DNA of 51,818 bases, taken from Eubacteriales bacterium. GTDB lineage: Bacteria > Bacillota > Clostridia > Oscillospirales > CAG-272. The stretch is taken from contig JAZNYH010000076.1 of the NCBI GenBank assembly GCA_045594305.1, positions 1 through 51,818 of the forward strand. The letters are read 5' to 3'. The notes beneath the pieces were generated by a model that searched no databases, was not told the DNA's origin, and saw only the letters and a list, made by a program, of their open reading frames with translations. This document shows positions 6,296 through 22,818 of the stretch, one piece after another. Every line of letters starts with the position of its first letter. Position 1 is the stretch's first letter. The translations under genes and the position numbers were made by a program.

Positions 6296-6445
6296 AAAGG
6301 CAGGCTCTCATAAGGATATTAAGTAAATCCAAGAGAAAATGCCGATTGAGAGTGGCTAAACAAGAAAAATGCAACATGGACGAAAAGTCTGTGTTGCATT
6401 TTTCGTTATGTGTCCGCACCTCAAAATTTGCGCCGCAATAAACAA
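6296..6445 (+). repeat. Conserved left end shared with 15636-15786, including hairpin AAAAATGCAACATGGAC-GAAAA-GTCTGTGTTGCATTTTT
   Basis: Near-identical ~150-bp sequence at both loci. Confidence 0.9.
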
Positions 6446-6649
6446 GGAAATCCATCACGGGCAAGAGTCTGTGATGGATTATCTCTTTCATACTCGACTC
6501 AAATATCAATTGTTTGGGAATTATTCACACGAAAATAGACTTTTTAACTACAAATCGATTAAAAATTCAAAAGAAAATAGCAAAATCTCTTGTAATTATT
6601 TATGCGATGATGTATAATGGTATAAAAGATTTATATTTCGAGGTGCAAC

Positions 6650-6859
6650 ATGGCTATTTGTTACAACAAACTATGGAAGCTTTTAATAGATCGAAAAATG
6701 AAAAAGAAGGATTTGCTTGAGCAAGCCGGAATCAGTCGCGGAACATTAACTAAGCTCAACAAAGATGAAAATGTTTCAACTGAAACCCTTGTTCGTATTT
6801 GCACTGCTTTAAAATGTGATATCAGCGATATTGTTGAAATCACTGATATTGAGAATTAA
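6650..6859 (+). CDS. Cro/C1-type (XRE) HTH transcriptional regulator
   Basis: YNKLWKLLID..MKK.DL...AGIS..TL.KL...ENVS...L.RIC.AL.CDI.DI signature; RBS GAGGTG. Confidence 0.9.
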   Translation: MAICYNKLWKLLIDRKMKKKDLLEQAGISRGTLTKLNKDENVSTETLVRICTALKCDISDIVEITDIEN

Positions 6860-6872
6860 GAGAGGTTTCCTC

Positions 6873-7811
6873 ATGACAGAAATAGAAAAGATTGCGTACG
6901 CAAAATCATTTATTGATAAATTAGCCATTGGTATTGATCCTACTGACGGCACACTTATCCCCGACGGCGAGGTTGCGCTTAACCCAAGACTATCAAAATG
7001 CTTTTTATATGTAGCGGATATCTTATCTAAAATCATTGAAAATCCGTCTGCCTTAACAGAAATGTATAAGACTAACGAGTGGATCGTCACGCCCGATGTT
7101 CTTGCAAGAATCGAATGCTCTGCATTAAGAGTGGGCATAAGCACTTTTGCAAAGCGAGTAAACGATGCGTTAAGATCAACTCGTAAATTTACCGCAACCG
7201 AGATAAACAATTGGCTTTTGCATGAAGGATATTTGACGAGAATTGCAACGAGCGATAATAAGATGACCAAACGCCCTACGCAAAAAGGAGTTAATCTCGG
7301 TATTACCACGGATGAGGTAATAAAGGACAACGGCCGAGCAAAATACTATGTTCGATGCAATGTGAACGCTCAACGCTTCATAAGAGATCATCTTTCGGAA
7401 ATTATTGAATTCTCTAAAACTTCCGTAGCATATTCGGATACATCAGTTAGACACAAGCCTTCCGAACCGTTTGAAATCACTCAGGCGGAGCTTGCAAAAT
7501 TTGAATTCTCTGAAACACCTTTGATGATAAGTCAGATTATTGACAGAATAAATGCGTTAAAGACAAACACGAGTGCAGCGAAATTAAAAGCAACGGATAT
7601 TACAGAGTGGTTGTTGAGCGTTGGAATTCTGAAAGTGGTTGCGCTTGATGCAAAGAACTATAAATTGCCGAGTGATATCGGTAGCGAAATGGGCATCAGC
7701 GTTGAACGCAGAAGCAGTAGCAACGGGGAGTATAGCATTGCTCTTTACAATATCGAAGCGCAAAAATTTATAATCGATAACTTGCACGCAATAGTAAGAA
7801 TCATTTTATAA
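6873..7811 (+). CDS. Hypothetical protein with two tandem winged-helix-like repeats
   Basis: RBS GAGAGG before ATG 6873; internal duplication (IS....R.N....AT.I..WLL..G.L...K.P...G...GI...AQ.FI.D.L). Confidence 0.75.
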   Translation: MTEIEKIAYAKSFIDKLAIGIDPTDGTLIPDGEVALNPRLSKCFLYVADILSKIIENPSALTEMYKTNEWIVTPDVLARIECSALRVGISTFAKRVNDALRSTRKFTATEINNWLLHEGYLTRIATSDNKMTKRPTQKGVNLGITTDEVIKDNGRAKYYVRCNVNAQRFIRDHLSEIIEFSKTSVAYSDTSVRHKPSEPFEITQAELAKFEFSETPLMISQIIDRINALKTNTSAAKLKATDITEWLLSVGILKVVALDAKNYKLPSDIGSEMGISVERRSSSNGEYSIALYNIEAQKFIIDNLHAIVRIIL

Positions 7812-7830
7812 GAACAATTCGGAGGCCGAT

Positions 7831-10800
7831 ATGGCAAAAAGCATAGTATTCTTCGACACGGAAATTAGTGTCCATGAAAACAAAATACTTGACATAGGTG
7901 CGGTTAGAGGTGACAAAACTGTTTTTCATTCTCCATCCGTGTCGGAGTTTTGCGCCTTCGTGGCAGGTGCGGAGTTTCTATGCGGTCACAATGTTGTTCA
8001 TCACGATATGAAGCATATCAAACCACACATAGGGGAGGCTCTTCATCAGAAAGTGATAGATACGCTCTATCTTTCTCCTCTGATGTTTCCCAAGCGTCCT
8101 TACCACAAACTGCTTAAGGATGATAAGCTTCAAGTCGAAGAATTAAATAATCCCGTCAACGACAGCCGCAAAGCATCCACCTTGTTTTACGACGAAGTAA
8201 ATGCATTTTGTCAGTTGTCAAAAAATCGCAAAATGATATATTGCGGTTTGCTTTATAGCCATCCGGAATTCCAAGGATTTTTTGACTATGTGGATTTCAA
8301 GCCTTATAAATATAATTTAGCGCAACTGATTAGTGATGAATTTTCAGGAAGGATATGTGCAAACGCAGATTTAGATGTTCTTATAAAGCACTATTCCGTA
8401 GAATTGGCGTATGCACTCGCTTTAGTAGGTTGTGATGATCATTATTCAACTACACCGCCTTGGCTTCTCTATAACTATCCCAAAATTGAGAATGTTATAA
8501 AATTTTTATGTAACACTCCATGTGAAGAGCATTGCGAATACTGTCGCAACGCTCTTGATATTCATGAGTGGCTGAAACCCTTCTTCGGTCATTCCGGTTT
8601 CCGTAAGTTTGCCGGTGATGAGATCTCGTTGCAAGAAGTTGCCGCGCAAGCAGCCGTTGATGGAAAATCGCTTCTTGCTGTGTTCCCAACAGGTGGTGGA
8701 AAGTCAATTACATTCCAATTGCCTGCACTTATGGCAGGGAGAGCAATGCATGGTCTTACGGTTGTAATTTCTCCTCTTCAGTCATTAATGAAAGACCAAG
8801 TTGACAACCTTGTAGAGAAAGGCATCGAGGGCGCAGTAACCATTAATGGAATGATGAATCCCATCGAACGCGCAGACGCCATTGAAAGAGTAAAGAATGG
8901 CAAAGCATCTCTGCTTTACATATCCCCTGAACAGCTTCGTTCAAAAACGATAGAGCGACTCTTGATGTCGCGCAATATTGTGCGTTTTGTTATCGATGAA
9001 GCGCATTGTTTCTCTGCTTGGGGGCAGGACTTCAGAGTAGATTATTTGTATATCGGAGATTTCATTCGCAAGCTTCAGAAGGATAAGAAAACCGAGCGTA
9101 AACCGATCCCCGTGTCCTGTTTTACTGCAACAGCAAAGCAAAAGGTTATCTCTGACATATGCGATTATTTCTATAAAAAGCTCGATTTGACATTGGAGAT
9201 CTTCGCTTCAAAAGCCACGAGAGAAAACCTTCACTACACCGTATTACACAAAGAAACGGATGAAGAAAAATACAGTGCATTGAGAACGTTGATCGCTCAA
9301 AAGCAATGCCCGACGATTGTTTATGTTTCACGAACAAAACGCACATTTGAGCTTGCCGCCAAACTGACGAGCGATGGTTTTAAAGCTCTTCCGTACAATG
9401 GAAAGATGGATGCCAACGACAAGATTATCAATCAAGAGGCATTCATGAACAATGATGTATCCATCATTGTAGCAACCTCAGCTTTTGGTATGGGTGTTGA
9501 CAAGAGAGATGTAAAGCTTGTTATACACTATGACATATCGGACTCTCTTGAAAATTATGTTCAGGAAGCAGGCAGAGCCGGACGAGATCAATCCTTGCAA
9601 GCTGAATGCTATGTTCTTTTTAACGATAACGATCTTGACAAGCATTTCATATTGCTGAACCAAACAAAATTAAGCATCAGCCAAATCCAGCAAGTATGGA
9701 AAGCTATCAAGGATCTCACGCAAAATCGCCCCAATATATGCTGTTCTGCTCTTGAAATTGCGCGTCAGGCGGGATGGGATGACTCTGCAGGTGCTGAAAT
9801 GGAAACCCGTGTCAGAACTGCCATCTCAGCACTTGAAACCGCAGGCTATATTGTGCGAGGCAGAAATGTGCCGAAGGTGTTTGCTACGAGCATAAGAGCA
9901 AAGGATATGACCGAAGCATCTTATCGTATTCGAAGCTCGTCCCTCTTTTCAGAAGAACAACGCACAGCAGCTCTGCGCATAATTAAATCCTTAATATCAA
10001 GCCGTAGTATTGCGACGGCTGGTAATGATGAAGCTGAATCACGCATAGATTATCTTGCCGACAATCTTGCACTGTCAAAAGAAGCCGTTATTGAGGCAAT
10101 CAATTTGATGCGTCAGGAAGGTCTGCTGGAAGATTACAGCGATATGTCCGCATACATTAACGATTCGGACAGTCACCATAAGTCGTCGCTAATTCTTGAA
10201 AGATTTGCAAAGCTTGAACGCTTTATTCTTTCAAAGATTGATGACGAAGGTGCTAATTTCGGATTTAAAGAATTAAATGAGTCTGCTCAAGCAGAAGGAA
10301 TTACCACATCAACAATAAAGAATATAAAAACCATCCTCTATTTTCTTTCTATCAAGAACTATATTCACAAAGAAGAAAATCGAGATAGTGTTTCCGTGGA
10401 TGTAGTTCCGGCATTGGGTCTTAAAAATCTGATGGACAAGTTTGAGAGGCGTATTGAACTGTGCAGATTCATACTTGCCGAGCTGTATGCAAAAGCCGAG
10501 CAGAAAGGAAAAGAAGCAGAGGGCGAGGATCTGAAGCCTGTTGTCTTTTCTCTGGTGGGGCTTTACAAGGAATATCAAAACGCGCCTAAAATGAACATAG
10601 GCGGAATTCCTGTGGAGTTAAGTGATGTCGAGGATGCTCTTCTGTATATGTCCAAGATTGGTGCGCTGAAGCTTGAAGGCGGATTTCTCGTCCTCTACAA
10701 TGCTATGGAAATCAAGCGTATCGTAAGAGATAACCGAATTAAATACAAGGTTGACGATTATAGATTGCTTGACGAATTCTATAAGCAGAAAATCCGTCAA

Positions 10801-12648
10801 ATCCACATCGTAGGTGAGTACGCAAATCTTATGGTGCGTGATTATGATGCTGCCTTACAGTTTGTTCAGGACTACTTCAATATGGAATTCAAGAAATTCA
10901 TAGCGAAGTATTTCAAGGGAGAGCGCGCAAAAGAGATTGAGCGAAATATCACGCCCGACAGATACAATCAACTGTTTGGTGATCTTTCCGATATACAAGA
11001 GGAAATCATCAACGATATATCCAAATATATAGTTGTGGCAGCCGGCCCCGGAAGCGGAAAAACAAGAGTTCTTGTTCACAAGCTCGCTTCGCTTTATCAG
11101 TTGGAGGACGTAAAACATGAGCAGATGCTTATGTTGACCTTCTCACGGGCGGCGGCTACCGAATTTAAAAAACGGTTACATACGCTTATTGGAAATGCGG
11201 CGAATTTCATCGAAATCAAAACATTCCACTCCTACTGCTTTGATTTACTCGGCAAGATCGGAACGCTTGAAGCATCGGAAAATATTGTAAGAGATGCTGC
11301 CGAAATGATTCGCAACGGAGAGGTTGAGCAAGGTAAAATTACCAAGACCGTTCTTGTTATTGATGAGGCACAAGATATGGACGAGCATGAATTCGCTCTC
11401 GTTCGTGCTTTGATGGCTCAAAATGACGATATGCGAATCATAGCCGTTGGCGATGACGATCAAAACATCTATGAGTTCCGTGGCTCTAATTCCGTTCATT
11501 TAAGAACGCTGATTGAACAGTACGGCGCAAACAAATACGAAATGGTCGAAAATTATCGTAGCAAAGCTAATGTGGTTGCATTGGCGAATGCGTTTGCGGA
11601 AACGATTACGAATCGTATGAAGGTTGCTCCCGTCGAGCCTGTTACCGAGGAAACAGGAGTTGTAAAAATCACACGCCACACTTCTGCTAATATGGAAGAA
11701 GCAGTCGTTCAAAATCTAATTGAAACATATACCGGCGGCAGAGCTTGTGTGCTTACGAACACCAATGATGAAGCACTTCGCATAATGGGATTGCTTTTGA
11801 AATACGGAAAATGCGCAAAGCTTATACAATCACTCGACGGCTTTAAATTAATCAATCTCGTAGAGGTGCGAGTATTTCTTAACGCCATTAAAAAAGATCT
11901 GCATTCGCCCGTTATCCCCGACGAGATATGGAATAAGGCGAAAAAGGAACTCTTTAGCAAGTACTATAATAGCTCTTGCGTTGATAATATTCGCAAGCTG
12001 GTGCTTGATTTTGAAGCCACTCATTCGGTAAAATACATTTCCGATTTGGAGGAATTCATAAGCGAATCAAACTATGAAGATTTTTATGTTGATAGCGAAG
12101 CAGAGGTAATCTATGTTTCGACTATACATAAATCTAAGGGGCGTGAATTTGATAGCGTATACATGATGCTTAAGGATGCTCACGGAAAGAATGATGAAGA
12201 ATGTAGAAAGCTATATGTCGGAATGACAAGATCTAAGAGCAATTTATTCATTCATACTAACACCGATCTGTTTGCAAAATATGTTCTCCCCGATGTAATT
12301 CATGTTGCTGACAGCAACGATTATAGTGAGCCGTCAGAAATCGTATTGCAAACAACGCACAGAGAAGTTGTTCTCGATTATTTCAAAAACAAAAAGGAAC
12401 TCATATTCGATTTAAGAAGCAGCACCTCATTAAAGATAGACGATGTTTATCTTAGCGCTGAACTTCATGGTCGAGATGTGCGTGTGGCGAAATTCTCAAA
12501 AGCTTTTGTAGAAACGCTTGAAAAACTTAAAACCAAAGGGTATGTGCCTACCTCTTCGGAAGTTCGTTTCATTGTAGCATGGAAAGGCGAGGAAGATGAT
12601 CAGGAAACCCCGATCCTTCTTACCGACATCCATTTTCAAAAACAATAA
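7831..12648 (+). CDS. Exonuclease-like + RecQ (SF2) + UvrD-like (SF1) helicase fusion protein
   Basis: N-terminal FFDTE/GHN/DTL DEDD-like motifs; PTGGGKS, DEAH, TATA, QEAGRAGRD (RecQ); AGPGSGKT, DEAQD, GDDDQ, TIHKSKGRE, YVGMTR (UvrD). Confidence 0.9.
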   Translation: MAKSIVFFDTEISVHENKILDIGAVRGDKTVFHSPSVSEFCAFVAGAEFLCGHNVVHHDMKHIKPHIGEALHQKVIDTLYLSPLMFPKRPYHKLLKDDKLQVEELNNPVNDSRKASTLFYDEVNAFCQLSKNRKMIYCGLLYSHPEFQGFFDYVDFKPYKYNLAQLISDEFSGRICANADLDVLIKHYSVELAYALALVGCDDHYSTTPPWLLYNYPKIENVIKFLCNTPCEEHCEYCRNALDIHEWLKPFFGHSGFRKFAGDEISLQEVAAQAAVDGKSLLAVFPTGGGKSITFQLPALMAGRAMHGLTVVISPLQSLMKDQVDNLVEKGIEGAVTINGMMNPIERADAIERVKNGKASLLYISPEQLRSKTIERLLMSRNIVRFVIDEAHCFSAWGQDFRVDYLYIGDFIRKLQKDKKTERKPIPVSCFTATAKQKVISDICDYFYKKLDLTLEIFASKATRENLHYTVLHKETDEEKYSALRTLIAQKQCPTIVYVSRTKRTFELAAKLTSDGFKALPYNGKMDANDKIINQEAFMNNDVSIIVATSAFGMGVDKRDVKLVIHYDISDSLENYVQEAGRAGRDQSLQAECYVLFNDNDLDKHFILLNQTKLSISQIQQVWKAIKDLTQNRPNICCSALEIARQAGWDDSAGAEMETRVRTAISALETAGYIVRGRNVPKVFATSIRAKDMTEASYRIRSSSLFSEEQRTAALRIIKSLISSRSIATAGNDEAESRIDYLADNLALSKEAVIEAINLMRQEGLLEDYSDMSAYINDSDSHHKSSLILERFAKLERFILSKIDDEGANFGFKELNESAQAEGITTSTIKNIKTILYFLSIKNYIHKEENRDSVSVDVVPALGLKNLMDKFERRIELCRFILAELYAKAEQKGKEAEGEDLKPVVFSLVGLYKEYQNAPKMNIGGIPVELSDVEDALLYMSKIGALKLEGGFLVLYNAMEIKRIVRDNRIKYKVDDYRLLDEFYKQKIRQIHIVGEYANLMVRDYDAALQFVQDYFNMEFKKFIAKYFKGERAKEIERNITPDRYNQLFGDLSDIQEEIINDISKYIVVAAGPGSGKTRVLVHKLASLYQLEDVKHEQMLMLTFSRAAATEFKKRLHTLIGNAANFIEIKTFHSYCFDLLGKIGTLEASENIVRDAAEMIRNGEVEQGKITKTVLVIDEAQDMDEHEFALVRALMAQNDDMRIIAVGDDDQNIYEFRGSNSVHLRTLIEQYGANKYEMVENYRSKANVVALANAFAETITNRMKVAPVEPVTEETGVVKITRHTSANMEEAVVQNLIETYTGGRACVLTNTNDEALRIMGLLLKYGKCAKLIQSLDGFKLINLVEVRVFLNAIKKDLHSPVIPDEIWNKAKKELFSKYYNSSCVDNIRKLVLDFEATHSVKYISDLEEFISESNYEDFYVDSEAEVIYVSTIHKSKGREFDSVYMMLKDAHGKNDEECRKLYVGMTRSKSNLFIHTNTDLFAKYVLPDVIHVADSNDYSEPSEIVLQTTHREVVLDYFKNKKELIFDLRSSTSLKIDDVYLSAELHGRDVRVAKFSKAFVETLEKLKTKGYVPTSSEVRFIVAWKGEEDDQETPILLTDIHFQKQ

Positions 12649-12742
12649 TTAAATGTTCAAGGTCACACAAGTATGATCGCTTATGTGGCCTTGTTTTTTG
12701 AAAGTCAAAAATCCGTGACAATCCGGGAGCGAAATAACGACA

Positions 12743-12823
12743 AAGCACAGCAAAACCGCAACGCAGCAGATCCACATCTACTTCCGCTATATCGGAAAGC
12801 TCGTACCCAAAGCAGTCGCCTAC
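12743..12823 (+). pseudogene. Remnant of the serine recombinase C-terminal tail
   Basis: Translates KHSKTATQQIHIYFRYIGKLVPKAVA, nearly identical to the end of the ORF at 22175-22709. Confidence 0.75.
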
Positions 12824-12838
12824 CCCCACAAAATGGAA

Positions 12839-12920
12839 TAGGACGGACAGCCGAAACTGTCCGTCCTACATACCGAGTGCCGCCTATACGCAGTTAATAT
12901 CCTTATGAGAAACTGCGTAA
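12839..12920 (+). repeat. Conserved right end (hairpin TAGGACGGACAG-CCGAAA-CTGTCCGTCCTA plus att arm), shared with 22725-22804
   Basis: CGCCTATACGCAGTTAATATCCTTATGAGAAACTGCGTAA is identical at both loci. Confidence 0.9.
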
Positions 12921-12940
12921 TTGGTGTCCTTTTTTGTATG

Positions 12941-13989
12941 TGGCGCGCCACAGTTAACCTCAGTTGAACACCTAAGTAAAAATTCAGAAAAGCCTTATAG
13001 TATAAGCCTTTTTAGCGTTTTTTAAAATGCTAATTTTTTGGAATTTTGTATATATAACAGCTCAAAAAGACCATTAAAATACCTTTTTAAAGATATTGAC
13101 AATATGGTGAAAATAGTGATACAATTATAAATGAGCCGTTCAAAGCATCTTTTTACAAGATAGCTTAAAGCATTTTAACGCAGTGTTTTAAGCCATTTGG
13201 ATGGTGAAATTGAATCTCAAATTAAAAAGAAAAGAAAGAAAAAATCTAAAAATACAGTATTAAAATCTGCTGTTTCTAAACTTAATATGAAAATAAAATA
13301 CAAGGGAGTAAAGATAGATATTGTTCTTCCAATATCTCAACAACTAATAAGTTCAATAATCAATGTCTTATGTTAAGGAGGTTTTTATGGATTTAGCATT
13401 GTATGAAAATATCATAATGAAAAGGCTTGCTTATTTTGTTACAATAGGTATTCTTGTTATATGCTTGGCTGTATTTGCTATGATATATGTAATAAAAAAG
13501 ATGAGACAACAAGATAAGGCGCTTTTCTTTGCACTGATTATATTGTGTATAGCCTTGATAATTGGTAGTATAATATTAATTGGAAAAGTATTATTTGAGT
13601 CTATTTATGATGTTAGTAATCAAGCTTATGTAGTTTGGGATGGTGAATTCATAGTGGGAACCGATGTTGAAAATCGTTCTGGAACATGTAGCTTGTATTT
13701 GCCTGATGAAAATGGAATAAAACTTGAAACGGATGCTTATGAATTAAAGTCTGGTAAATATATTGGACAAGTAATATACGGAGAAAAAACCAAAATTGTT
13801 TTAGAAATTAAAACAGAAGACTGATGATAAGAAAAAATAAAGTTTTGTCAGCTTGACGAGTAAAATTGTCAAGCTGATTTTTGTATAACGAAAACCACGC
13901 GATAGTGAAGTGAACCCCATTTAGTGCACAAAAAATAAAAAAGACTCAGCATAACCACAGGGGTTCAACTGAGTCTCTCTTGGCGCGCC
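12941..13989. mobile_element. Single-gene cassette at the tRNA-Arg 3' end
   Basis: TGGCGCGCC (tRNA 3' end) duplicated at 12941 and 13981; inward inverted arms CTCAGTTGAAC (12959-12969) / GTTCAACTGAG (13963-13973); AT-rich interior. Confidence 0.65.
13387..13824 (+). CDS. Hypothetical membrane protein (two predicted TM helices)
   Basis: GGAGG RBS before ATG 13387; two hydrophobic segments followed by a soluble tail; terminator-like hairpin at ~13848-13880. Confidence 0.7.
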   Translation: MDLALYENIIMKRLAYFVTIGILVICLAVFAMIYVIKKMRQQDKALFFALIILCIALIIGSIILIGKVLFESIYDVSNQAYVVWDGEFIVGTDVENRSGTCSLYLPDENGIKLETDAYELKSGKYIGQVIYGEKTKIVLEIKTED

Positions 13990-14056
13990 CCGGGGGATTC
14001 GAACCCTCGACCTACCGGTTCGTAGCCGGGCACTCTATCCGCTGAGCTAGGAGCGC
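13981..14056 (-). tRNA. tRNA-Arg (ACG)
   Basis: Reverse complement GCGCTCCTAGCTCAGCGGATAGAGTGCCCGGCT-ACG-AACCGGTAGGTCGAGGGTTCGAATCCCCCGGGGCGCGCCA folds as a cloverleaf with CCA end. Confidence 0.95.
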
Positions 14057-14081
14057 ATACACTTTTTCTTTGTGCCTAAGT

Positions 14082-14110
14082 ATAATAACACAATATTTTT
14101 CAAAAGTCAA
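14082..14110 (-). promoter_or_regulatory. sigmaA-type promoter for tRNA-Arg
   Basis: TTGACT-17 nt-TATTAT with extended TG on the minus strand. Confidence 0.6.
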
Positions 14111-14209
14111 TAGGAAATTTGAAATTTCTTTTTTCTAAGATTATTTTGTCAAAAATCCAAGGACATATTGCAAAAGAACGGATTAAAATAACAAAAACGA
14201 AAAAAACTA

Positions 14210-15410: not shown

Positions 15411-15885
15411 CAAGCAAAAAAGACAGGTCTTGCACCTGTCTTTTTTTGTATATCACGCTATTGGTAGTCATCTTACATTACAATTGAGGCGTGGTAAAAT
15501 AAGAATATCAAGCAAAAGGGGGACTATTATCTCTATATAGATGATAGCTTTTCCAAACAGAGCGAGTATTGTAAGCTATACATAGACCTAAAGCAAGCCG
15601 AGCTTGAATAAGTAATCGCAACAAAAAAGTCACCAAAAGGCAGGTTCTCATAAGGATATTGAGTTAAATCCAAGAGAAAATGCCGATTGAGAGTGGTTCA
15701 ACAAGAAAAATGCAACATGGACGAAAAGTCTGTGTTGCATTTTTCTTTATACTTCTGCTCCCCAAAATTTGCGCCGCAATAAACAAAGAATAAGTTTGGC
15801 GAAAAAGTTAGATTTATTTTCGAAAAAGTGCTGGACTTCCGCAACATTCTGTGGTATGTTGTTGTGCTAACAGGAGGTGCAACAC

Positions 15886-16152
15886 GTGGATAACCCAATA
15901 AAAGAACTATGGCACGGAAACATAATACCGCAAGAGGACAGCAGAAATAACTCAAAGGAGATGAAGGAGCTACTTGGATACATGGCACGGCATCACGAAG
16001 ATTTGGAGAAAACCTTCACAGACGAACAAAAGGAGATCTTCGAAAAGTTCCGTGACTGCTGGGATGAGTACGTAAGCCTCGCCGAAGCAGCTATCTTCGA
16101 GTATGCCTTCAAGTTAGGAATGCAGATAGCAATAGAAACATTAACCGAATAG
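15886..16152 (+). CDS. Small clostridial hypothetical protein (DUF6809-like)
   Basis: GGAGG RBS before GTG 15886; ELW.GNI.P...EQKEIFEKF.DCW.EY....E.AIF.YAFKLG pattern, recognised from memory. Confidence 0.65.
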   Translation: MDNPIKELWHGNIIPQEDSRNNSKEMKELLGYMARHHEDLEKTFTDEQKEIFEKFRDCWDEYVSLAEAAIFEYAFKLGMQIAIETLTE

Positions 16153-16328
16153 TAAATAGGGCTGAGCGCATGGATGTGTTCAGTCATCTATAATTGAGTT
16201 GCTATTGGAAATATTGATGGATTTTATGACTAAGATTCGATATTTTCAAACTAAATTACCACGAGTGAAAATTTACTATTAATGTTTTAAAATATTTTGA
16301 TATATAAACCACAAATTGTGCATAGCAC

Positions 16329-16357
16329 TTGACAATTTCGCCCAGACGAAGTATAAT
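16329..16357 (+). promoter_or_regulatory. Perfect-consensus sigmaA promoter for the HTH-ThiC-like-ADH-TIR operon
   Basis: TTGACA-17 nt-TATAAT ending 34 nt before the HTH start codon. Confidence 0.8.
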
Positions 16358-16391
16358 TATTACGTAGAATTATATCAAAAAAGAGGATTGT

Positions 16392-16595
16392 ATGGAATTT
16401 AACTATATTTCCACGAAAGATGCGGCTAAAATTCTTGGCATAACCGAAAGATACGTGCAAATGCTTTGCAAAGAAGGTAAAATTGAAGGTGCGATTAAAT
16501 TCAATGGACAAGGTGTTTGGTTGGTGCCGCACTTGTCTGTAAAAAAGATCAACAAAAAAAGAAGTTTTAAATACACCGAGGAGGAAGAGCGATGA
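16392..16595 (+). CDS. Excisionase/MerR-like HTH DNA-binding protein
   Basis: YISTKDAAKILGITERYVQMLCKEGKIEGA.K....WLVP; stop overlaps the next start (ATGA). Confidence 0.85.
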   Translation: MEFNYISTKDAAKILGITERYVQMLCKEGKIEGAIKFNGQGVWLVPHLSVKKINKKRSFKYTEEEER

Positions 16596-17770
16596 ATACT
16601 GTAAAAGAAGAATATTATGGTGTTTTTTCTAATGCAGAAATTGAGCAAAAAGTAGCAAACGGAGAAATTTTGCGTTTTAAAGCTAAACGGCCAATACTTA
16701 TTGGGACTCAATGCATGCTTAAAGTTAATATGAATGTTGGGGTTTCGAATGAGGATTTCTATGATGTCGAAGTGGATAAAATTGCAAAAATTTCATCCTT
16801 GCCGTATCGTCCTGATTCAATGATGGACCACACAATAGTTCCCTTGAAAAAGCCTTTGTGGAAAACGATGCTAGAGGTATTTGATGGTGCCGTTGGAACA
16901 TTACCACATTACCTTGTTTTTGACGAAAACAAGGGAATTGATGAAAATGACCTTTTTGATAACTTGTTAGACATGGTAAAAGGTGGAGTGAGTTTTATGA
17001 CATTACACCCAACTGCGGATATAAGTATTTACCATAGGGCGGTAGCCTCGCACAGAATAGTTCCTACCACTTCACGAGGTGGATATGTTTTGTTAAAAGA
17101 TCAAGCTATTAATAGAAGATGCGAAAATATAATCGCAAAGAATTTCGAAAAAATAATGGATATTTTTCGCGAGAACAATGTTGCGGTAAGTATCGGAACG
17201 GTTTTTAGACCTGCCACAATACACGAAGCTTTGGATGAATTTCACAGAGAAGAAACTGTTTTGCAAAAAAAATACATAGACATAGCCAAAGCGCGTGGTG
17301 TCCAGGTCATGATGGAAGGAATCGGACACATTTCACTAGACAAAATGGAAGAATACTCCGAAATAATTCGTCCTTACAATGTTCCGTTAATGCCACTTGG
17401 TCCAATGCCCTCCGATGAGATAATTGGATTCGATCACATTTCAAATGCTTTAGGAGCCTTATCTATGGCACAAACCGGCGTCGTTGGTATGATCAATTCG
17501 GTAACAAGGGAGGAACATACGGGAAAAGTTCCCTCGTTTGATTCCATTCTCGAAGGCCTTAAGACCGCTAGAGCAACCGCACATTGTTATAATATTAGTA
17601 AATTCCCAAAGTACAAAGAAGCGACGGAAGTGATAGGTATTACTCGTGCACAACATGAAACCTGCGTGCAGCGAGGAGGAATTTTTGGATTCACATCGGT
17701 TGATGATAAGGAGTCAGAATCTTGCACTAGATGTCGTAGAGAGTGTCCATTAAAAAAAATAATTGTATGA
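16592..17770 (+). CDS. Divergent ThiC/BzaAB-family radical-SAM enzyme
   Basis: KVNMNVG, MD, GTLPHY, FMTLH, SRGG, VQVMMEG.GH, LGP..SD...GFDHI, VT.EEH and C-terminal CTRCRREC align with ThiC motifs. Confidence 0.85.
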   Translation: MNTVKEEYYGVFSNAEIEQKVANGEILRFKAKRPILIGTQCMLKVNMNVGVSNEDFYDVEVDKIAKISSLPYRPDSMMDHTIVPLKKPLWKTMLEVFDGAVGTLPHYLVFDENKGIDENDLFDNLLDMVKGGVSFMTLHPTADISIYHRAVASHRIVPTTSRGGYVLLKDQAINRRCENIIAKNFEKIMDIFRENNVAVSIGTVFRPATIHEALDEFHREETVLQKKYIDIAKARGVQVMMEGIGHISLDKMEEYSEIIRPYNVPLMPLGPMPSDEIIGFDHISNALGALSMAQTGVVGMINSVTREEHTGKVPSFDSILEGLKTARATAHCYNISKFPKYKEATEVIGITRAQHETCVQRGGIFGFTSVDDKESESCTRCRRECPLKKIIV

Positions 17771-17838
17771 TAACAATAGGTTAGATGTTATAAAAGGTTA
17801 ACAGCACCAATTTAAAATCAATTTATAGGAGATATATT

Positions 17839-18987
17839 ATGAATCTTAGTTATTGCAACACCACGAAAGTTTTTTTTACCAATGAAATTAAAGATATTTA
17901 TGATTTTGTTTGTTCGTCTGGATTTAACAAGGTTTTATTCGTTACAGGTGGACAATCTACTAAAAAAATTGCTCTTCAAATCAAAGATGGCTTTAATACT
18001 TCTAATATTCAGTGCATTGTTTTGGATGGAATTACCACTAATCCGTTGTCGGAGACGATAGAAGAAATGGCTAAAGTAGCAAAGAGTTTTTCTCCCGATG
18101 TGATATTAACTGTCGGTGGAGGAAGCGTTCACGATGCGGGGAAGGCTATTTCAATAATGGTGTTTTCTGAGAACAACAATGTTGAAGACTATACTGTGAA
18201 CGGAAAATTAAGCGTTCCTGGAATAGTCAAAACAATTCCCGTTATTACTATTCCTACTGTTTGGGGATCGGGGGCAGAAGTATCCCCGGCAGCACTTGTT
18301 CGAATTGGTAAAGAAAAAAGAGTTATATTTTCACCAATGTTGCATCCTGTCGCAACATTTATTAACACTAACTTTGCAGATAGTCTCACTAATTATCAAA
18401 TTTCGAGATCGTCTTTTGATTCATTTGTGCAAGCATTAGAAGGATTTATTTCAACATCGTCGAACAACATTTCTAATTCTTTTGCAAAGATTGCAATTGA
18501 TAATTATAATACATGTCTACCTTCGCTGTTCCATAACCAGATAACCAATGATGTTTTGGAAAAATTGGCAATATCGTCTGTTTTCTCATCATATGTTTGC
18601 TCTACTGCTAGCGTAGGAGCAATTCATGCAATATCTGATCCAATTAGCGGTAGATACGATACACATCACGCTGTTGCATTAGCGATGATTGCTGTAGATG
18701 TGTTGAAGAAAAATCTATCAGTAGTTGATGAGGGTAAGATTCAAGAATTGGATAAGATGCTGTACAATATCCCCAGTTTCTTTAATGATGTTACGGAACG
18801 AGTTTTGGATAAAGTAAAATATATTATTGCTCAACTTGATCTAGTTAATAAAGAGAAAACATTTATTGAGAAGCAAGATTTAGATGCTATGGCAGATGAA
18901 TCATATAACGGAGACATGGTGGGCAATCCGTACGAATTTGAGAAATTTGAAATAGTTGAGATTTTAAGGAAGCATTGTAATGATTAA
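17839..18987 (+). CDS. Iron-containing (group III) alcohol dehydrogenase family protein
   Basis: NP, GGGSVHDAGK, IPTVWGSGAEVS, DSFVQALE, HAI..., HH metal-site motifs. Confidence 0.9.
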   Translation: MNLSYCNTTKVFFTNEIKDIYDFVCSSGFNKVLFVTGGQSTKKIALQIKDGFNTSNIQCIVLDGITTNPLSETIEEMAKVAKSFSPDVILTVGGGSVHDAGKAISIMVFSENNNVEDYTVNGKLSVPGIVKTIPVITIPTVWGSGAEVSPAALVRIGKEKRVIFSPMLHPVATFINTNFADSLTNYQISRSSFDSFVQALEGFISTSSNNISNSFAKIAIDNYNTCLPSLFHNQITNDVLEKLAISSVFSSYVCSTASVGAIHAISDPISGRYDTHHAVALAMIAVDVLKKNLSVVDEGKIQELDKMLYNIPSFFNDVTERVLDKVKYIIAQLDLVNKEKTFIEKQDLDAMADESYNGDMVGNPYEFEKFEIVEILRKHCND

Positions 18988-20821
18988 TGTTGCTAATTTT
19001 GAAAGACGATCACGGTTTCTTGTTAAAGCGATAGCTGACAAGGTAAAATACGATAATGAGTCTTCGCCAAAATATGCATATTGGGCACTGTATTTAGATG
19101 ATAATAGAAAAAAGCCTCGTGAAGTTGATACTTGTGCAACTAGTTATTGTATATCAATATTAGAGACAGAAAAACAACGTTTAATGTCTGGTGGCGGTGT
19201 AGATAAATACATTTACCATGATATAATTCAGCAGGCCGTTCGCACATTGATACGCCTTCGTGGGAAAAATGGGGCTTGGCCTTCTGTTGTAGAGCCTAAG
19301 ATTCTCCAATCTCCTCCTGTATCTGAGTATTGTGGTGAAGTGGCAATTGGAGATAATTATTTCGCTTTAACAGCACTTCTTGATGTTGGATTTTTAAGTA
19401 AACAATTTGAGTATATAAGTAATATTCCTGAGGAATTACAAGAGTTAGAAGGTCGTGTGGAATATGTGTGTCAAACAGTTGATTGGTTAATTCTCAATCG
19501 TGTTGCTCCTGAAAATTATGGTTGGTATTATACAAATGCGGCGAACGAGTCCTCGACACAACCTGTAACTATAGCAACTGCTAATGTTCTTTCCGTGCTT
19601 AATAGAGTAAAAAATGCTATTAAGGGATATGAAAAATTCTTAAATTTTTACAAAAGAATTGAAAAAACAATTAATGAGACCAATGAGTATTTTGCTATTA
19701 ATATAAAGGCCGACGGTGGAATTGGTAAGTTTATCTCTTCAAGCACAACATCATCTTCATTATTGCATACTTGTAAAATGATAGATGCATTAATTTTAAG
19801 TGAAAATTATGAGTATTTGGACGAGCTTGAGCATGCAATAAAGTTTGTTGTCGACACTTGCAATCGTTTTCCTGATTGCAATCTTGCTACTCTTGGTGTT
19901 GATTTTTATAGCGAAACATACAATCTGGTATTGCCATCTGAAGATGAGATTACAATTCGGCATGAGAACTATTCGGAAGGATTACTGCTTTATACAATGC
20001 TCAATATTTTACACTTATATAGTCAAAGTGGTAGTTATATTTCAAAGGTGAAAATCGATCCAGTTGCAATCACTGATATCGTAAACTTGGTGATTAAACA
20101 ATTGGAAAACATGCAAACTAAAGAAGGCACCAACAATGGTCTGTTTAGATGTCATGTAGTTAGATCAGAAGGTATGCATCCAGTTTATGCAAGTTTTGAA
20201 GGCTATCGTGCATTCCGCATGTATATGTCTTTAGATAAGCATATTTTGACAGAAAACGATAAACTTAATTTGCAAGAAGAGATTAAGAAGAGTAACCCTT
20301 TCGATCCTGATGCTCCATATCTTTTCATAAGCTATTCTCACAAGAATGATGATGTTGTTTTGTTGGATGTTCAACGATTAAAAAAGCAATATAACTGTTG
20401 GATTGACTTTGAAAATTTGGACGGAGGTCGTTCAGCAACAGAAGATGACTGGACAGAAAAAGTTCAACCTGTTTTGGATAATCCGAATTGCAAGGGTGTA
20501 ATAATGTACATTAGCAAAGAAGGTATGAATTCTAACGGGCTTATGAGAGAAGCGGAATGGATATCTAAACGAAAATTGGACTTCTACACATTTTGGGTTG
20601 GGTTTAGTAATACGATAACGCCAAAGGAAATGGCAACTATAATATATGAAATCCCCGATGATGACACTCAACGCAAATTGAGAAAAATCTTGGCATTTTC
20701 ATATATTGGACAAACGAGCAAAGATCCTACAGAATTCTCGTATTATCACCGACAGGATACTTTTTCACATTTGTCCCATCCTGATTTTCACAATTGGTTA
20801 AAGAAAATCAATTTAGTATAA
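18980..20821 (+). CDS. Prenyltransferase/terpene-cyclase-like alpha/alpha barrel fused to a C-terminal TIR domain
   Basis: N-terminal QW-like repeats (LRGKNGAWP, PENYGWY, IKADGGIG, MQTKEG..NGLF); C-terminal YLFISYSHKN, CWID, W...V..., S..LMREAE TIR_2 pattern with the putative catalytic Glu. Confidence 0.75.
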   Translation: MINVANFERRSRFLVKAIADKVKYDNESSPKYAYWALYLDDNRKKPREVDTCATSYCISILETEKQRLMSGGGVDKYIYHDIIQQAVRTLIRLRGKNGAWPSVVEPKILQSPPVSEYCGEVAIGDNYFALTALLDVGFLSKQFEYISNIPEELQELEGRVEYVCQTVDWLILNRVAPENYGWYYTNAANESSTQPVTIATANVLSVLNRVKNAIKGYEKFLNFYKRIEKTINETNEYFAINIKADGGIGKFISSSTTSSSLLHTCKMIDALILSENYEYLDELEHAIKFVVDTCNRFPDCNLATLGVDFYSETYNLVLPSEDEITIRHENYSEGLLLYTMLNILHLYSQSGSYISKVKIDPVAITDIVNLVIKQLENMQTKEGTNNGLFRCHVVRSEGMHPVYASFEGYRAFRMYMSLDKHILTENDKLNLQEEIKKSNPFDPDAPYLFISYSHKNDDVVLLDVQRLKKQYNCWIDFENLDGGRSATEDDWTEKVQPVLDNPNCKGVIMYISKEGMNSNGLMREAEWISKRKLDFYTFWVGFSNTITPKEMATIIYEIPDDDTQRKLRKILAFSYIGQTSKDPTEFSYYHRQDTFSHLSHPDFHNWLKKINLV

Positions 20822-20957
20822 TTTATCATTTCAAAGTGCTTAAATAAATCTATAAATGCCCTTTAGATGCATTATACATAAAGTTTTTCTTAATTTGAAA
20901 AGAGCGAGATTGCACTTTATTTTTGCAATCTCGCTTTAAGTATTTATATTGAGGTGA

Positions 20958-21604
20958 ATGATGAAAAAAGAACTTGTTGGACAAGCGATATCATTTATTA
21001 AGGAATTGTTTGAAAATGAGTGTAGTGGACATGACTACTTTCATGCATTTCGAGTATTTAAAATGGCAACACATATTGCAAGCAAAGAATATGCTAATTT
21101 GGAAATTGTACAACTTGCGGCATTGTTGCACGATGTTGATGATAGAAAACTATCTCCCGAGACTTATGCGGAACAGAGCAACGCAAAGGCTTTTTTGCAA
21201 CAAACGGCGTGGATAATTCAATGATTGACACCATATGTCAAATTATCTGTAAAACATCATATATGGGAAAGGATTCTGTTATCCCTGAGACGATTGAGGG
21301 AAAATGTGTGCAAGATGCTGACAGGTTAGATGCTATCGGAGCAATTGGTATTGCAAGAACTTTTGCATATGGTGGAAAGCACAATAGGTTAATACATAAT
21401 CCGGATATTAAGCCTAATATGGATATGGGGGCAGAAGAATATGTTAACAGTCAATCAACAAGCATTAATCATTTTTACGAAAAACTATTCCAATTGACCG
21501 AGTTAATGAATACGCCCTCGGCAAAAGAGATTGCAAAAAGCAGAGAAAACTATATGAAAGAATATATTGCAGAATTTATGGCAGAATGGGAAGGAATTCG
21601 TTAA
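20958..21604 (+). pseudogene. HD-domain phosphohydrolase (YedJ/YpgQ-like), split by a 1-nt frameshift
   Basis: GHDYFH..RV and LAALLHD in the first frame; VQDADRLDAIGAIGIARTF and HFYEKL in the second; break near 21198-21205. Confidence 0.8.
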
Positions 21605-21900
21605 TTTTTAATAGATTATACAAAATAGTAACTCAAATCTATTAAAAAGGCACAAGTTTATGTTTCGATTTTATGATAAAACTGAAGCAACTATATCAGC
21701 CATCAATGTTTGCATTACGATAATCAAAGAAAAAACTATCTATGAAATTGCTGATAACAAAAATAGCACAGAAGGTTTACTCTCAAAATGAAGGACAGAC
21801 CTCTTCCCACAAAATCCGTGAAGTGAAATAACGGTGTTTTAGACCGATTGTGCCAAAAGAAATATTATTTCCAAAAACGAAAAAAATATTCAAAAAGCTA

Positions 21901-21929
21901 TTGACAAAGTAAAAATCCTATGTTAGAAT
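21901..21929 (+). promoter_or_regulatory. sigmaA promoter with extended -10, ahead of a structured leader
   Basis: TTGACA-17 nt-TAGAAT, TG at -15/-14. Confidence 0.7.
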
Positions 21930-22174
21930 AAAGCCCCTCACGAAGATGCGAGCTTCAAAATTGAATATATGTATCAAGTGCCAAATTAACTCTTCGGAGT
22001 AAACACAAAAGATCGCTCGACGATCCTCAAAACTGATCTGAGTCAAAAGACTCGTACTTACATATCGGCACGGAGCATTATAGTTTTAGCGAACGAGTGC
22101 CGTTCGCTTATTGGTGTTTCCGTAAAAATCTGTGTGTAAATACGAGTCTTTTTGTTTTGTCATCAGGAGGTAAA

Positions 22175-22709
22175 AATGAAACACAAAAATTTCTTTATTG
22201 TTCCCAATCAAATATTCAAGGTAACCTACTACGCACGCGCACAAACCCGTGAGTTCGTCAGCTTTATAAATCAAAAAAGCTCTGCGGAAAACCGCAGAGA
22301 GCTGAATGCAAAGATGGTAGAGCTTGCGAGTCTTGAAAAGCGCAACAACGAGCTGAACGCTCTGTTCAGGCGACTCTATGAGGAGAATGTTCTCGGCAAG
22401 GTTACGAACGAACAGTTCCGTATGCTCTCCGACGGTTATAATACCGAGCAAAGAGAAATCACCGAGCAACTTCCGATAGTGAAGCAAGAGATTGAAGATT
22501 TGAAAGCGGCCGCTACTAATGTCGAAAGATTTGTGGATATTGCAAACAAGTACACAGATTTAAGGGAGCTGACTCCCGAAGTGCTTCGCACATTCATAGA
22601 GCGAATTATTATCCACGAAAGAACAGCAAAGCATAGCAAAACCGCAATGCAGCAGATCGACATCTACTTCCGCTATATCGGAAAACTCGCCCCCGAAGCA
22701 GTCGCCTAA
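22175..22709 (+). pseudogene. Truncated large serine recombinase C-terminus (DUF4368/TnpX-like tail) behind a short unrelated N-terminus
   Basis: RLYEENVLGKV..E.F..LS..Y..EQ, F.....KYTDL.ELTPE.LR.FIERI.IHE, QQIDIYFRYIG; no resolvase catalytic domain; GGAGG RBS. Confidence 0.8.
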
Positions 22710-22818
22710 CCTCACAAAGCGAAATAGGACGGACAGTCGAAACTGTCCGTCCTACAATCGATACCGCCTATACGCAGTTAATATCCTTATGAGAAACTGC
22801 GTAAAGGTGGCTTTTTCT

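Follow-up and report, generated by a model that had tools for sequence, protein, structure and literature searches.

Two islands with shared ends, different cargo and no recombinase in a Clostridia contig

Two elements with common ends

We analysed a 51,818-nt contig (JAZNYH010000076.1 of assembly GCA_045594305.1), hereafter the window, from a metagenome-assembled genome (MAG) of a Eubacteriales bacterium. Within it lie two elements, E1 (6296-12920) and E2 (15636-22804), which had been predicted from the bare sequence to share their ends and to differ in cargo. BLAST bore this out, aligning the left ends at 91.6% over 155 nt and the right ends at 89.5% over 191 nt. The left-end similarity falls into two blocks (E1/E2: 6296-6327/15636-15667, 91%; 6324-6449/15665-15790, 92%), as does that of the right ends (12730-12870/22616-22756, 89%; 12880-12920/22764-22804, 100%), the last 41 nt being the same in both elements. 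The ends comprise the following features:

6296-6449, plus strand: left end of E1, with a terminal inverted repeat (6296-6320) and a terminator-like hairpin (6364-6404)
12838-12869, minus strand: right-end hairpin of E1, with a GAAA loop on the plus strand, 14 pairs and a T-rich tail; a terminator when read on the minus strand
12880-12920, plus strand: right terminus of E1, same sequence as that of E2, with a terminal inverted repeat at 12896-12920 (repeat family D4)
15636-15790, plus strand: left end of E2, with a terminal inverted repeat (15636-15660) and a hairpin (15705-15747)
22724-22755, minus strand: right-end hairpin of E2; a terminator when read on the minus strand, facing a GH3 gene
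22764-22804, plus strand: right terminus of E2, with a terminal inverted repeat at 22780-22804 (repeat family D4)

The GAAA-loop hairpins described earlier thus lie in both right ends (12839-12868 and 22725-22754). The termini are inverted repeats: the right end reads AATATCCTTATGAGAAACTGCGTAA and the left end, once reverse-complemented, AATATCCTTATGAGAACCTGCCTTT; the two agree at 16 of 16 outer bases and partially further in. The dinucleotide AA is present at both junctions of E1 and of E2, and the shared sequence is limited to these 2 bp, with no longer target duplication. Such termini, with AA at all four junctions, agree with the imperfect palindrome centred on AA that the original prediction had drawn by joining right end to left.

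The interior of E1 consists of three cargo genes and a remnant:

6650-6859, plus strand: Cro/C1-type HTH regulator, 69 aa (Pfam HTH_26, E = 6.7e-21)
6873-7811, plus strand: 312-aa protein without a Pfam, PADLOC or NCBIfam match
7831-12648, plus strand: 1605-aa fused helicase, with a RecQ/DEAD-type N-terminal half and a UvrD/PcrA-type C-terminal half
12740-12841, plus strand: remnant of a recombinase gene, about 27 codons (...TKHSKTATQQIHIYFRYIGKL...), its original stop codon lost

The 312-aa protein belongs to a 90% cluster of 105 members, and copies 96-97% identical at the protein level occur in seven other MAGs. The helicase matched DpdF-like (1.2e-94) and GajB-like (3.2e-44) models, recQ_fam above its cut-off, and also the PsyrT model. 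The partner proteins of known helicase defence systems (Gabija, Dpd, PsyrTA) were not found in E1: PADLOC detected no GajA, PsyrA or other Dpd protein among the ORFs tested.

E2 carries a different set of genes, along with more of the backbone that is described below:

15877-16152, plus strand: DUF6809 backbone gene (Pfam E = 1.1e-20), in the same position as in intact elements
16392-16595, plus strand: cargo, HTH_17/excisionase-family DNA-binding protein, 67 aa (NCBIfam match below cut-off)
16592-17770, plus strand: cargo, ThiC-like radical SAM protein, 392 aa (3e-58; below the ThiC equivalog cut-offs)
17839-18987, plus strand: cargo, iron-containing alcohol dehydrogenase family protein, 382 aa
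18980-20821, plus strand: cargo, 613-aa protein with a weak TIR-like stretch at residues 449-528
20958-21604, plus strand: cargo, HD phosphohydrolase gene, split in two frames at a T6 run near 21190
21813-22217, plus strand: backbone, comprising the region upstream of the HTH_36 gene of intact elements and its first 14 codons (92% to contig G014:C24)
22176-22709, plus strand: fusion ORF, 177 aa, 14 HTH_36 codons joined in frame to recombinase residues 381-543 (DUF4368, 6.8e-22)

The original prediction took both cargoes for candidate defence modules, and the two fared differently. A defence role is plausible for the E1 cargo, given its RecQ/UvrD-type fused helicase with DpdF-/GajB-like matches. 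For the E2 cargo such a role is at most weakly suggested by the 613-aa protein, whose TIR_2 match (23.4 bits) is below the Pfam cut-off of 28, whose PADLOC matches reach only 2.8e-4 and 9.4e-4, and whose nearest Atlas clusters are TIR proteins at 0.89, which is a lead only; no PADLOC model for a ThsA-like partner matched in E2. A cluster look-up placed this protein on 13 other contigs, and a related-locus search of the genome contig collection found no relatives. Among the matches listed in 24 same-genus and 16 same-order genomes, the E2 cargo was absent and E1 had a single match of 199 nt at 71%.

The island family, its recombinase and its targets

A search with the terminal motif returned 59 matching loci, two of them (L039 and L048) chance matches and the rest made up of 24 right and 33 left ends in Clostridia MAGs. 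Because the same termini recur at these 57 further places, the ends of E1 and E2 are not a chance resemblance; the islands that bear them are small and form a family in Clostridia of the ruminant gut. Five of the 24 right ends follow a recombinase frame of 547-571 aa that stops 74-76 nt before the terminal repeat, and one more follows a frame of 456 aa that is open at the contig edge. Another ten have a cut-down recombinase tail or none, and eight cannot be judged, so copies without a recombinase (L106 and L130 are further examples) equal or outnumber intact ones (10 versus 5-6 of 24). Among tail matches sampled from the order, 9 of 24 fall in frames below 410 aa, three of these close to a contig start.

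Intact members encode a 543-aa large serine recombinase of the TnpX/TndX type, with Resolvase, Recombinase, Zn_ribbon_recom and DUF4368 domains; among solved structures, the TnpX catalytic domain is closest to it (2mhc, E = 5.7e-43). The enzyme ends in ...QQIDIYFRYIGKL..., the tail by which the original prediction had proposed to recognize an intact enzyme, and its presence in relatives with the same ends supports the assignment of the AA-core sites to this type. The order of an intact element is left end, DUF6809 gene, cargo slot, HTH_36 gene, recombinase gene and right end, and the termini change together with the recombinase subfamily. For 2 kb inward from either end, the elements behind two pairs of loci (L052/L046 and L070/L066) agree at 99.9%, yet their flanks differ. 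Finding the same element at two sites points to recent mobility of an intact member.

Across the family the ends and backbone are fixed and the cargo differs widely, including elsewhere a phosphate transporter and surface proteins, in line with the earlier suggestion that cargo swaps between fixed ends. The E1 cargo (6440-12739) is 94% identical to that of three relatives (L167, L168 and L170), where it sits between the DUF6809 gene and the region upstream of HTH_36. The same module, again at 94%, occurs at L165 next to a DUF6809 gene; there a 550-aa recombinase with the same four domains, only 45% identical to that of the family, adjoins an HK97-type capsid gene and a D5-type primase.

All 61 flanks, those of E1 and E2 included, differ from one another, so the family inserts at many sites. 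These sites have a common form: in 58 of 61 flanks a G/C-rich stretch is followed by a T-run 8-20 nt out, while 6 of 54 control stretches lying another 300 nt away from the element have a T-run, and sister subfamilies have the same signature in 28 of 30 right flanks. This pattern indicates that the targets are the loops of terminator-like hairpins. When target sites were rebuilt, six of seven folded at -12.5 to -33.7 kcal/mol versus -4 to -8 for shuffles. In the window, the E1 target rebuilt from both flanks gave -12.5 kcal/mol (shuffles, -5.6 +/- 2.1) and the E2 target -13.4 kcal/mol (shuffles, -4.0 +/- 2.1). The halves of these two sites, and the neighbouring gene, are:

6277-6295, no strand: left half of the E1 target hairpin (A-run and stem half)
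12921-12937, no strand: right half of the E1 target hairpin (stem half and T-run)
15624-15635, no strand: left half of the E2 target hairpin (AAAAAAGTCACC)
22805-22816, no strand: right half of the E2 target hairpin (AGGTGGCTTTTT), 3 nt from the GH3 stop codon
22819-24984, minus strand: GH3 gene next to E2

In relatives, too, GH3 is followed by a hairpin at this position. Each element end carries a terminator-like hairpin of its own, and these would replace the terminator that insertion splits. The literature records retrieved for serine recombinases together with intrinsic or rho-independent terminators concerned engineering or unrelated work only, and a search for DUF6809 returned none.

Loss of the recombinase and the question of mobility

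As had been claimed, neither copy has a catalytic domain: Pfam detected no Resolvase domain in any E1 or E2 ORF, and PF00239, run against all six frames of the genome, matched contigs C89 and C49 only, not on the contig of E1 and E2. A large serine recombinase is encoded by the intact relatives with the same ends, not by these two. Alignment of E2 to contig G014:C24 gave two segments, 21813-22217 at 92% and 22210-22822 at 91%, which in G014:C24 are separated by 2,370 nt. By this comparison, E2 is an intact backbone with a 2.37-kb internal deletion, whose junction (22210-22217) lies inside the fusion ORF. E1, of whose recombinase only residues ~517-543 are kept, appears to be two ends around a helicase module from the family's normal cargo slot, its deletions being read from what is missing. 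The view of the family itself as recombinase-less cassettes therefore does not hold, as a full-length recombinase gene lies next to at least five of the 24 other right ends, and E1 and E2 are internal-deletion derivatives.

An independent metagenome contig (record 31 of run X5, 4,560 nt) runs from 15442-15637, with 5 differences and 1 gap, straight into 22805-24300, with 21 differences in 1,496 (a flank 98.6% identical). The joint from 15637 to 22805 is a precise empty site for E2; it fits a crossover at AA, and it establishes E2 as a discrete unit. Since E2 is absent from a strain with so similar a flank, we take its insertion and its deletion both to be recent. Seventeen sequencing runs were checked; each contained a fraction of 0.12 at most of the words of 15000-23400, and four were compared with the window. 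Among the joints listed in these four, none fell at the E1 ends and none that 'goes back' fell at the ends of E1 or E2; joints with sides of fewer than 30 letters (6480 to 15802, 12728 to 21828 and others) were left out, as they come from related elements.

We consider it probable that E1 and E2 are two separate insertions of one island family that lost the recombinase afterwards by internal deletion and are now similar to CIMEs. The recombinase would join the palindromic junction of the element to a chromosomal palindrome by crossover at the AA dinucleotide, and the palindromes it uses on the chromosome would be hairpin loops of terminator-like form (A-run, G/C stem, loop, stem, T-run). In E2 a single 2.37-kb deletion would have run from HTH_36 codon 14 to recombinase residue 380. 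In E1 deletions would have taken DUF6809 on one side and, on the other, the stretch that begins with the HTH_36 region and ends near residue 516 of the recombinase. Both copies would now be non-autonomous and, at present, probably immobile. Signs of decay are a private change in the E1 left repeat, the lost stop codon of the E1 tail and the frameshifted HD gene of E2. The ends of both nevertheless stay close to the family consensus, the E1 left end departing from that of 31 other left ends in two ways, by the loss of 1 nt and by a C at position 10 of the repeat that is private to it. Since the attachment sites of both copies seem usable, another element could move them by supplying a cognate recombinase; the identity of the 41-nt terminus, though the neighbouring 141 nt differ by 11%, and the near-consensus ends leave room for such a helper.

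A more far-reaching reading, which we think rather unlikely, is that the clade homes on intrinsic-terminator loops, brings replacement terminators and has a plug-in cargo slot, and that its recombinase-less derivatives are moved in trans by intact ones. Together this would amount to a system by which gut Clostridia exchange cassettes of genes for defence, restriction, transport and surface functions, with insertion nearly harmless owing to the replacement terminators at both ends.

The original proposal that E1 and E2 arrived without a recombinase, inserted by one encoded elsewhere as members of a set of trans-mobilised cassettes, is in our judgement unlikely. It would account for attachment sites that look intact and a 41-nt terminus that is identical, for the frequency of recombinase-less copies (10 of 24 right ends, as well as L106 and L130), and for E2 being polymorphic between close strains; moreover, TnpX-type enzymes are described as needing no accessory factor for excision or integration (PMC5704250). 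A second HTH_36-to-tail fusion, with another junction, is common to three protein clusters (P0035, P0039 and P0040), so at least one deletion derivative has persisted and diverged; across 401 genomes of the order, this P0035-type fusion was not matched over its full length. However, no recombinase-less copy was seen at two sites, and, apart from the E2/L016 backbone, right ends without a recombinase have no interior stretch of 600 nt or longer in common with any other right end. The E2 junction product was on one contig only: its fusion ORF forms a cluster of 1 member on 1 contig among ~15 billion proteins, in a look-up that depends on gene calls and exact starts, and a 27-nt probe for the junction gave 0 matches in the metagenome contig collection, which was never shown to hold the family. 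The E1 junctions were absent from six loci that hold the whole E1 cargo, so that neither the probe, these loci nor the cluster look-up revealed a second site for a junction of E1 or E2.

No cognate recombinase was found in this MAG, which is 95% complete; mobile DNA is often missing from bins. The one large serine recombinase of the MAG (C89, 549 aa) differs in its tail, and the sole DUF4368 match in the genome is the E2 tail. None of the ten MAGs with recombinase-less right ends was among those with an at least 93% identical recombinase (80 matches listed; accession prefixes compared by hand). The predicted circle junction did not appear: joined ends (two 15-nt terminal repeats 15-25 nt apart) numbered 0 in the genome, metagenome and viral contig collections, where contigs cannot show rare forms and the family is known only from the genome collection, and none was among the joints listed in the runs. 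The terminal motif itself had 0 matches in the viral contig collection. With no cognate recombinase, no joined-end junction and the E2 deletion product on one contig, the original prediction of mobilisation in trans is not supported.

We regard it as very improbable that the E2 tail functions as a gene. On that reading the HTH_36 promoter would drive an in-frame fusion of the HTH_36 start with the DUF4368 and coiled-coil portion of the recombinase, and the product would interfere with related recombinases that come in. In its favour, a promoter-like site (21901-21929, scoring 11/12) precedes the fusion, the frame is kept, and the dN/dS of the tail against intact genes is low (0.045-0.097, compared to 0.030-0.035 among intact genes). 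Similar fusions exist at another junction, and many short DUF4368-only proteins lie on long contigs. Yet chance alone keeps the frame in a third of deletions, E1 keeps just ~27 decayed codons, and the E2 fusion is unique to this contig. A low dN/dS, here only a little above the range among intact genes, is to be expected after a young deletion; it fits a very young one, without proving it.

We find it scarcely credible that the ends were duplicated by faulty assembly, or that they are inverted repeats of a DDE-type transposon or MITE: the contig is metagenome-assembled and repeats can mislead assemblers, but the copies differ by 8-10%, so they were not collapsed or duplicated by the assembler, and an independent contig gives the exact empty site; further, the junctions have no more than 2 bp in common, without a longer target duplication, and the termini lie 74-76 nt from a serine recombinase gene in five of five intact copies and change with the recombinase subfamily.

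For the window, the outcome is mostly a clarification: both copies are decayed, and for one of them an empty site is documented. A fixed backbone, a variable cargo slot and ready decay to recombinase-less islands matter for how 'defence islands' in MAGs are read. Targeting of terminator loops would explain spread through small gut genomes without gene breakage, and suggests a rule for predicting landing sites.

Comparison with known systems

The recombinase of the family resembles those of Tn4451/Tn4453 (TnpX) and Tn5397 (TndX) in domain order, and TnpX provides its best solved relative. The core of Tn4451 is GA, whereas that of the islands is AA. The islands also differ from Tn4451 and Tn5397 in that their targets are terminator-hairpin loops, that the recombinase gene is at the right end by HTH_36 and the DUF6809 gene at the left end, and that E1 and E2 themselves have no enzyme. 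Unlike the Tn4451 type, E1, E2 and the intact element L088 have no relaxase or mobilisation gene of their own and no resistance gene (Pfam, ORFs submitted); unlike L165-type islands, these three have no capsid or primase gene. TnpX and TndX are described as acting by 2-bp-core crossover on imperfect inverted ends with low target specificity, one protein serving excision and integration (PMC5704250). Imperfect inverted ends and an identical 2-bp core without a longer duplication are what we found in E1 and E2.

CIMEs are decayed ICEs or IMEs that keep attL and attR (PMC5704250). E1 and E2 are similar, as they have lost the integration gene, have no integrase or transfer genes, keep both attachment sites and derive from an autonomous element by deletion, probably so in E1. 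In contrast, CIMEs are described for site-specific elements and are carried along by an incoming neighbour, whereas the recombinase here is multi-targeting; no tandem or accreted junction of the CIME kind was found in the three contig collections.

The multi-targeting clade of large serine recombinases (Durrant et al., 2022, PMC10083194) comprises DUF4368-containing, TndX-like enzymes with many attB sites, a TT (= AA) core and ends enriched in T and A, and PMC13137831 describes the clade in the same way. These papers describe enzymes and sites; in their main texts we found no recombinase-less derivatives or cargo slot, and the terms 'terminator' and 'palindrom' are absent, while their supplementary motif figures may show the same pattern. 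The island family has DUF4368, many sites and the AA core in common with this clade. If its targets are as we propose, 'multi-targeting' serine recombinases gain a concrete natural target, in which the A/T-rich arms reported for their sites would be the A- and T-runs of terminator hairpins, with crossover in the loop.

Shared ends of the two elements

The original prediction had described two sister elements, E1 and E2, with common left and right ends, a GAAA-loop hairpin, an identical terminus and no catalytic domain. Repeat search, BLAST, the junction sequences and domain searches showed that this anatomy is right. The features in and around the pair are as follows.

3955–6192, minus strand: 745-aa protein with BspA-type leucine-rich repeats and a collagen-repeat stretch, adjoining E1
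6296–12920: E1
6296–6327 and 15636–15667: paired left ends, 91% identical
6324–6449 and 15665–15790: paired left ends, 92%
12730–12870 and 22616–22756: paired right ends, 89%
12880–12920 and 22764–22804: paired right ends, 41 nt, identical
14281–14371: tRNA-Ser
14364–14405 and 15405–15446: identical 42-nt direct repeat (tRNA-Ser 3' end and terminator)
14832–15329, minus strand: 165-aa ORF of no known family
15636–22804: E2
20958–21604: HD phosphohydrolase gene of E2, in two frames

By BLAST within the genome, the ends of E1 and E2 matched over 155 nt at 91.6% (left) and 191 nt at 89.5% (right), with no further copy on the other 104 contigs. In both elements the sequences show terminal inverted repeats, the GAAA-loop hairpin set about 50 nt in from the right end, and AA at all four junctions. 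Across other copies (31 left, 21 right), conservation spans about 150–200 nt at both ends. A Pfam search found no Resolvase domain in the ORFs of E1 or E2, and in a six-frame search of the genome PF00239 matches were confined to contigs C89 and C49. E2 keeps a 177-aa ORF with DUF4368; E1 keeps about 27 codons of recombinase tail and has lost the stop codon. We conclude that E1 and E2 are genuine and well delimited: two decayed mobile islands from a widespread but poorly described family.

Several features lie in or beside the pair. The left flank of E1 (6283–6295) ends in GCGTAA, the same six letters that end the right terminus, which may mean that the target resembled the junction of the element itself, or may be left over from an older copy. 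The 42-nt repeats bracket about 1 kb, apparently what remains of a small island that inserted at the tRNA; its ORF region is 92% identical to a contig of another genome (G004:C26). The HD gene is split at a T6 run near 21190, by a true frameshift or by an error in assembly.

A family with fixed ends and differing cargo

An exact scan for the 21-nt terminal motif, in one genome per prokaryote species, produced 59 loci. Two, in unrelated MAGs, match by chance; Clostridia MAGs, mainly from ruminant gut samples by record title, account for the remaining 57, of which 24 are right ends and 33 are left ends. Five of the 24 right ends have a frame of 547–571 aa whose stop lies 74–76 nt before the repeat, and one has a frame cut by the contig at 456 aa. 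Four retain a shortened recombinase tail (56, 76, 78 or 268 aa), six have none, and eight, on contigs that stop short, were left unjudged. The full-length enzyme (543 aa from ATG; Resolvase, Recombinase, Zn_ribbon_recom and DUF4368 domains) ends in ...QQIDIYFRYIGKLAPEQVA, the tail noted in the original prediction. Among solved structures it is closest to the TnpX catalytic domain (2mhc, E 5.7e-43), and a protein search returned 557 relatives. Recombinase subfamilies at 64–78% identity carry their own terminal-repeat variants, indicating that ends and enzyme change together. According to the part of Durrant et al. (2022; PMC10083194) consulted, DUF4368 occurs in 63% of a 'multi-targeting' clade that has TndX-like enzymes among its members, and the sites of this clade have arms rich in T and A around a TT core. 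The genome of E1 and E2 also contains two termini of a sister subfamily (AACTTCCTTATGAGAACCAGC; C88:2640–2660 and C92:60455–60475), each with a hairpin before and a G/C-rich stretch and T-run after; a genome-wide Resolvase search gave no match on either contig.

One intact element, at locus L088 (1096–11729), consists in order of the left end, a DUF6809 gene, cargo, an HTH_36 gene with a short stretch of small ORFs, the recombinase gene and the right end. Its cargo, on the opposite strand, is a Pst phosphate transporter with PhoU and a PhoR/PhoB pair. The same element recurs in a second MAG (G014:C24), where the 2 kb at either end are 99.9% identical and the flanks are different, and thus the autonomous form moved recently.

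Table. Cargo and recombinase state of family members (locus; cargo; recombinase).
L088, G014; phosphate transporter; intact
L087, 14 kb; two large surface proteins with Listeria-Bacteroides repeats; intact
L084; AAA_11/AAA_12 helicase and ClpB-like ATPase; intact
L130, 4.4 kb; radical SAM protein and two unknowns; cut to 231 aa
L106; two DNA methylases and ICEA-like nuclease; no catalytic domain
L018/L027; BspA-type LRR protein, the type also adjoining E1; no tail
E1; HTH, 312-aa unknown, RecQ/UvrD-type fused helicase; about 27 codons left
E2; HTH_17, ThiC-like radical SAM, Fe-ADH, 613-aa protein with sub-threshold TIR match, frameshifted HD hydrolase; 163 residues left

Ends and backbone are therefore fixed while cargo differs, as had been predicted, and the cargo of the family extends beyond defence, for instance to the phosphate transporter and surface proteins. 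The E1 cargo also occurs elsewhere. At L165 (3598–16137), a satellite-like island of another subfamily, the neighbours of the module (94% nucleotide identity) are a serine recombinase of 550 aa (45% identical), an HK97-type capsid gene and a D5-type primase, and a DUF6809 gene comes after the module. L168, another locus with this cargo, encodes upstream of its DUF6809 gene (5935–7788) a protein of 617 aa that starts with a TIR domain (2.1e-18) and also has FtsK/SpoIIIE and FtsK-gamma domains.

Insertion targets and an empty site

Outward from the core, positions 3–9 are G/C-rich and positions 11–16 are 69–97% T on both sides. At least five T in six occurred within 8–20 nt in 58/61 flanks, compared to 6/54 controls taken 300 nt further out, and sister subfamilies showed the same signature at 28/30 right flanks. 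When sites were rebuilt for the seven elements with both flanks, six folded with the core in the loop (−12.5 to −33.7 kcal/mol, versus −4 to −8 for shuffled sequences); the L015/L016 site did not. Judged by sequence, the targets are loops of predicted terminator hairpins. The inner left end of the element (AGGCAGGTTCTC) resembles the target consensus, so this preference may reflect ordinary half-site recognition that terminators happen to satisfy. Each end itself bears a strong hairpin and T-rich tail facing transcription arriving from the flank, and the best three terminator-like sites in the region are at 22755–22724 and 12869–12838 (minus) and 6364–6404 (plus). These end hairpins would replace the terminator split by insertion. 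A search of literature listings found no report of terminators as natural serine-recombinase targets, and neither 'terminator' nor 'palindrom' appears in the main texts of PMC10083194 and PMC13137831.

We compared four public metagenome runs with 5300–24300 at 90% likeness. A 4,560-nt contig from one run (X5) passes from 15442–15637 (5 differences, 1 gap) straight into 22805–24300 (21 differences in 1,496), skipping 7,167 nt; three letters at the joint could belong to either side. This empty allele of E2 is the junction expected of an AA crossover, in which an attB of ...GTCACC-AAAA-GGTGGC... yields both junctions in the window. A contig from a second run (X3) joins 15628 to 22805 via ten other letters, and the hairpin so formed is perfect but has another loop. 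After the GH3 gene, ten same-genus relatives carry other sequence, mostly a hairpin with a T-run; in one (G008), the tRNA-Ser gene and its terminator adjoin GH3. No empty site for E1 was found in the runs or relatives compared, in which its neighbourhood (the BspA-type gene on the left, 12921–13540 on the right) is itself missing or different.

Probable loss of the recombinase in place, and comparison with known systems

E2 matches G014:C24 at 92% over 21813–22217 and 91% over 22210–22822; in G014 these stretches lie 2,370 nt apart, making E2 a normal backbone minus one deletion. The deletion joins HTH_36 codon 14, in frame, to recombinase residue 381, and the DUF6809 gene is retained at the left end. 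Loci in six other MAGs match the interior of E1 (6440–12739) at 94% identity, and at three of them, L167, L168 and L170, it occupies the normal cargo slot, with a DUF6809 gene on one side and the region upstream of HTH_36 on the other. In E1 itself, the left end leads directly into cargo and the cargo directly into the last 27 recombinase codons, which marks it as a copy trimmed on both cargo sides; by eye, the printed sequences have short similar strings at both junctions.

We consider it probable that both elements inserted with a recombinase and then lost it in place. The original prediction had them moved in trans by a recombinase encoded elsewhere, which we regard as unlikely; the anatomy that it described stands. 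Movement in trans would fit attachment sites that look usable from their letters, the last 41 nt being identical in E1 and E2 yet the adjoining 141 nt differing by 11%, and the polymorphism of E2 between close strains. Recombinase-less copies are also common in the family, and three protein clusters (P0035, P0039 and P0040; 155–156 aa) share a fusion of about 45 HTH_36 residues to the recombinase tail. The junction of that fusion is unlike that of E2, indicating that deletions between these two genes recur. However, the MAG (95% complete) contains no cognate enzyme: its only DUF4368 match is E2's own tail, and its only large serine recombinase has another C-terminus. The E2 fusion ORF forms a cluster by itself, on one contig, whereas the 613-aa cargo protein is found on 13 others, and the E1 junctions are absent from the six loci sharing its whole cargo. 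No joined-end junction appeared in three collection scans or among the listed joints of the four metagenome runs. Decay is visible in a private change in the left repeat of E1, its lost stop codon and the frameshifted HD gene of E2. The dN/dS of the E2 tail (0.045–0.097) is close to that among intact genes (0.030–0.035), as expected for a young deletion. Together, these observations favour loss in place.

The family shares its enzyme type and 2-bp-core mechanism with the Tn4451/Tn5397 kind and the multi-targeting clade, but E1 and E2 do not themselves encode the enzyme, the defining feature. Both correspond to CIMEs, which, in the part of PMC5704250 consulted, have lost integration and transfer genes and kept attL and attR. 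Compared with the descriptions of these systems, as far as the sources were covered, the family differs in being without any relaxase among the scanned ORFs of E1, E2 and L088, in its predicted terminator-loop targets, in the terminator-like hairpins built into both ends and in its layout of DUF6809 gene, cargo, HTH_36 gene and recombinase.
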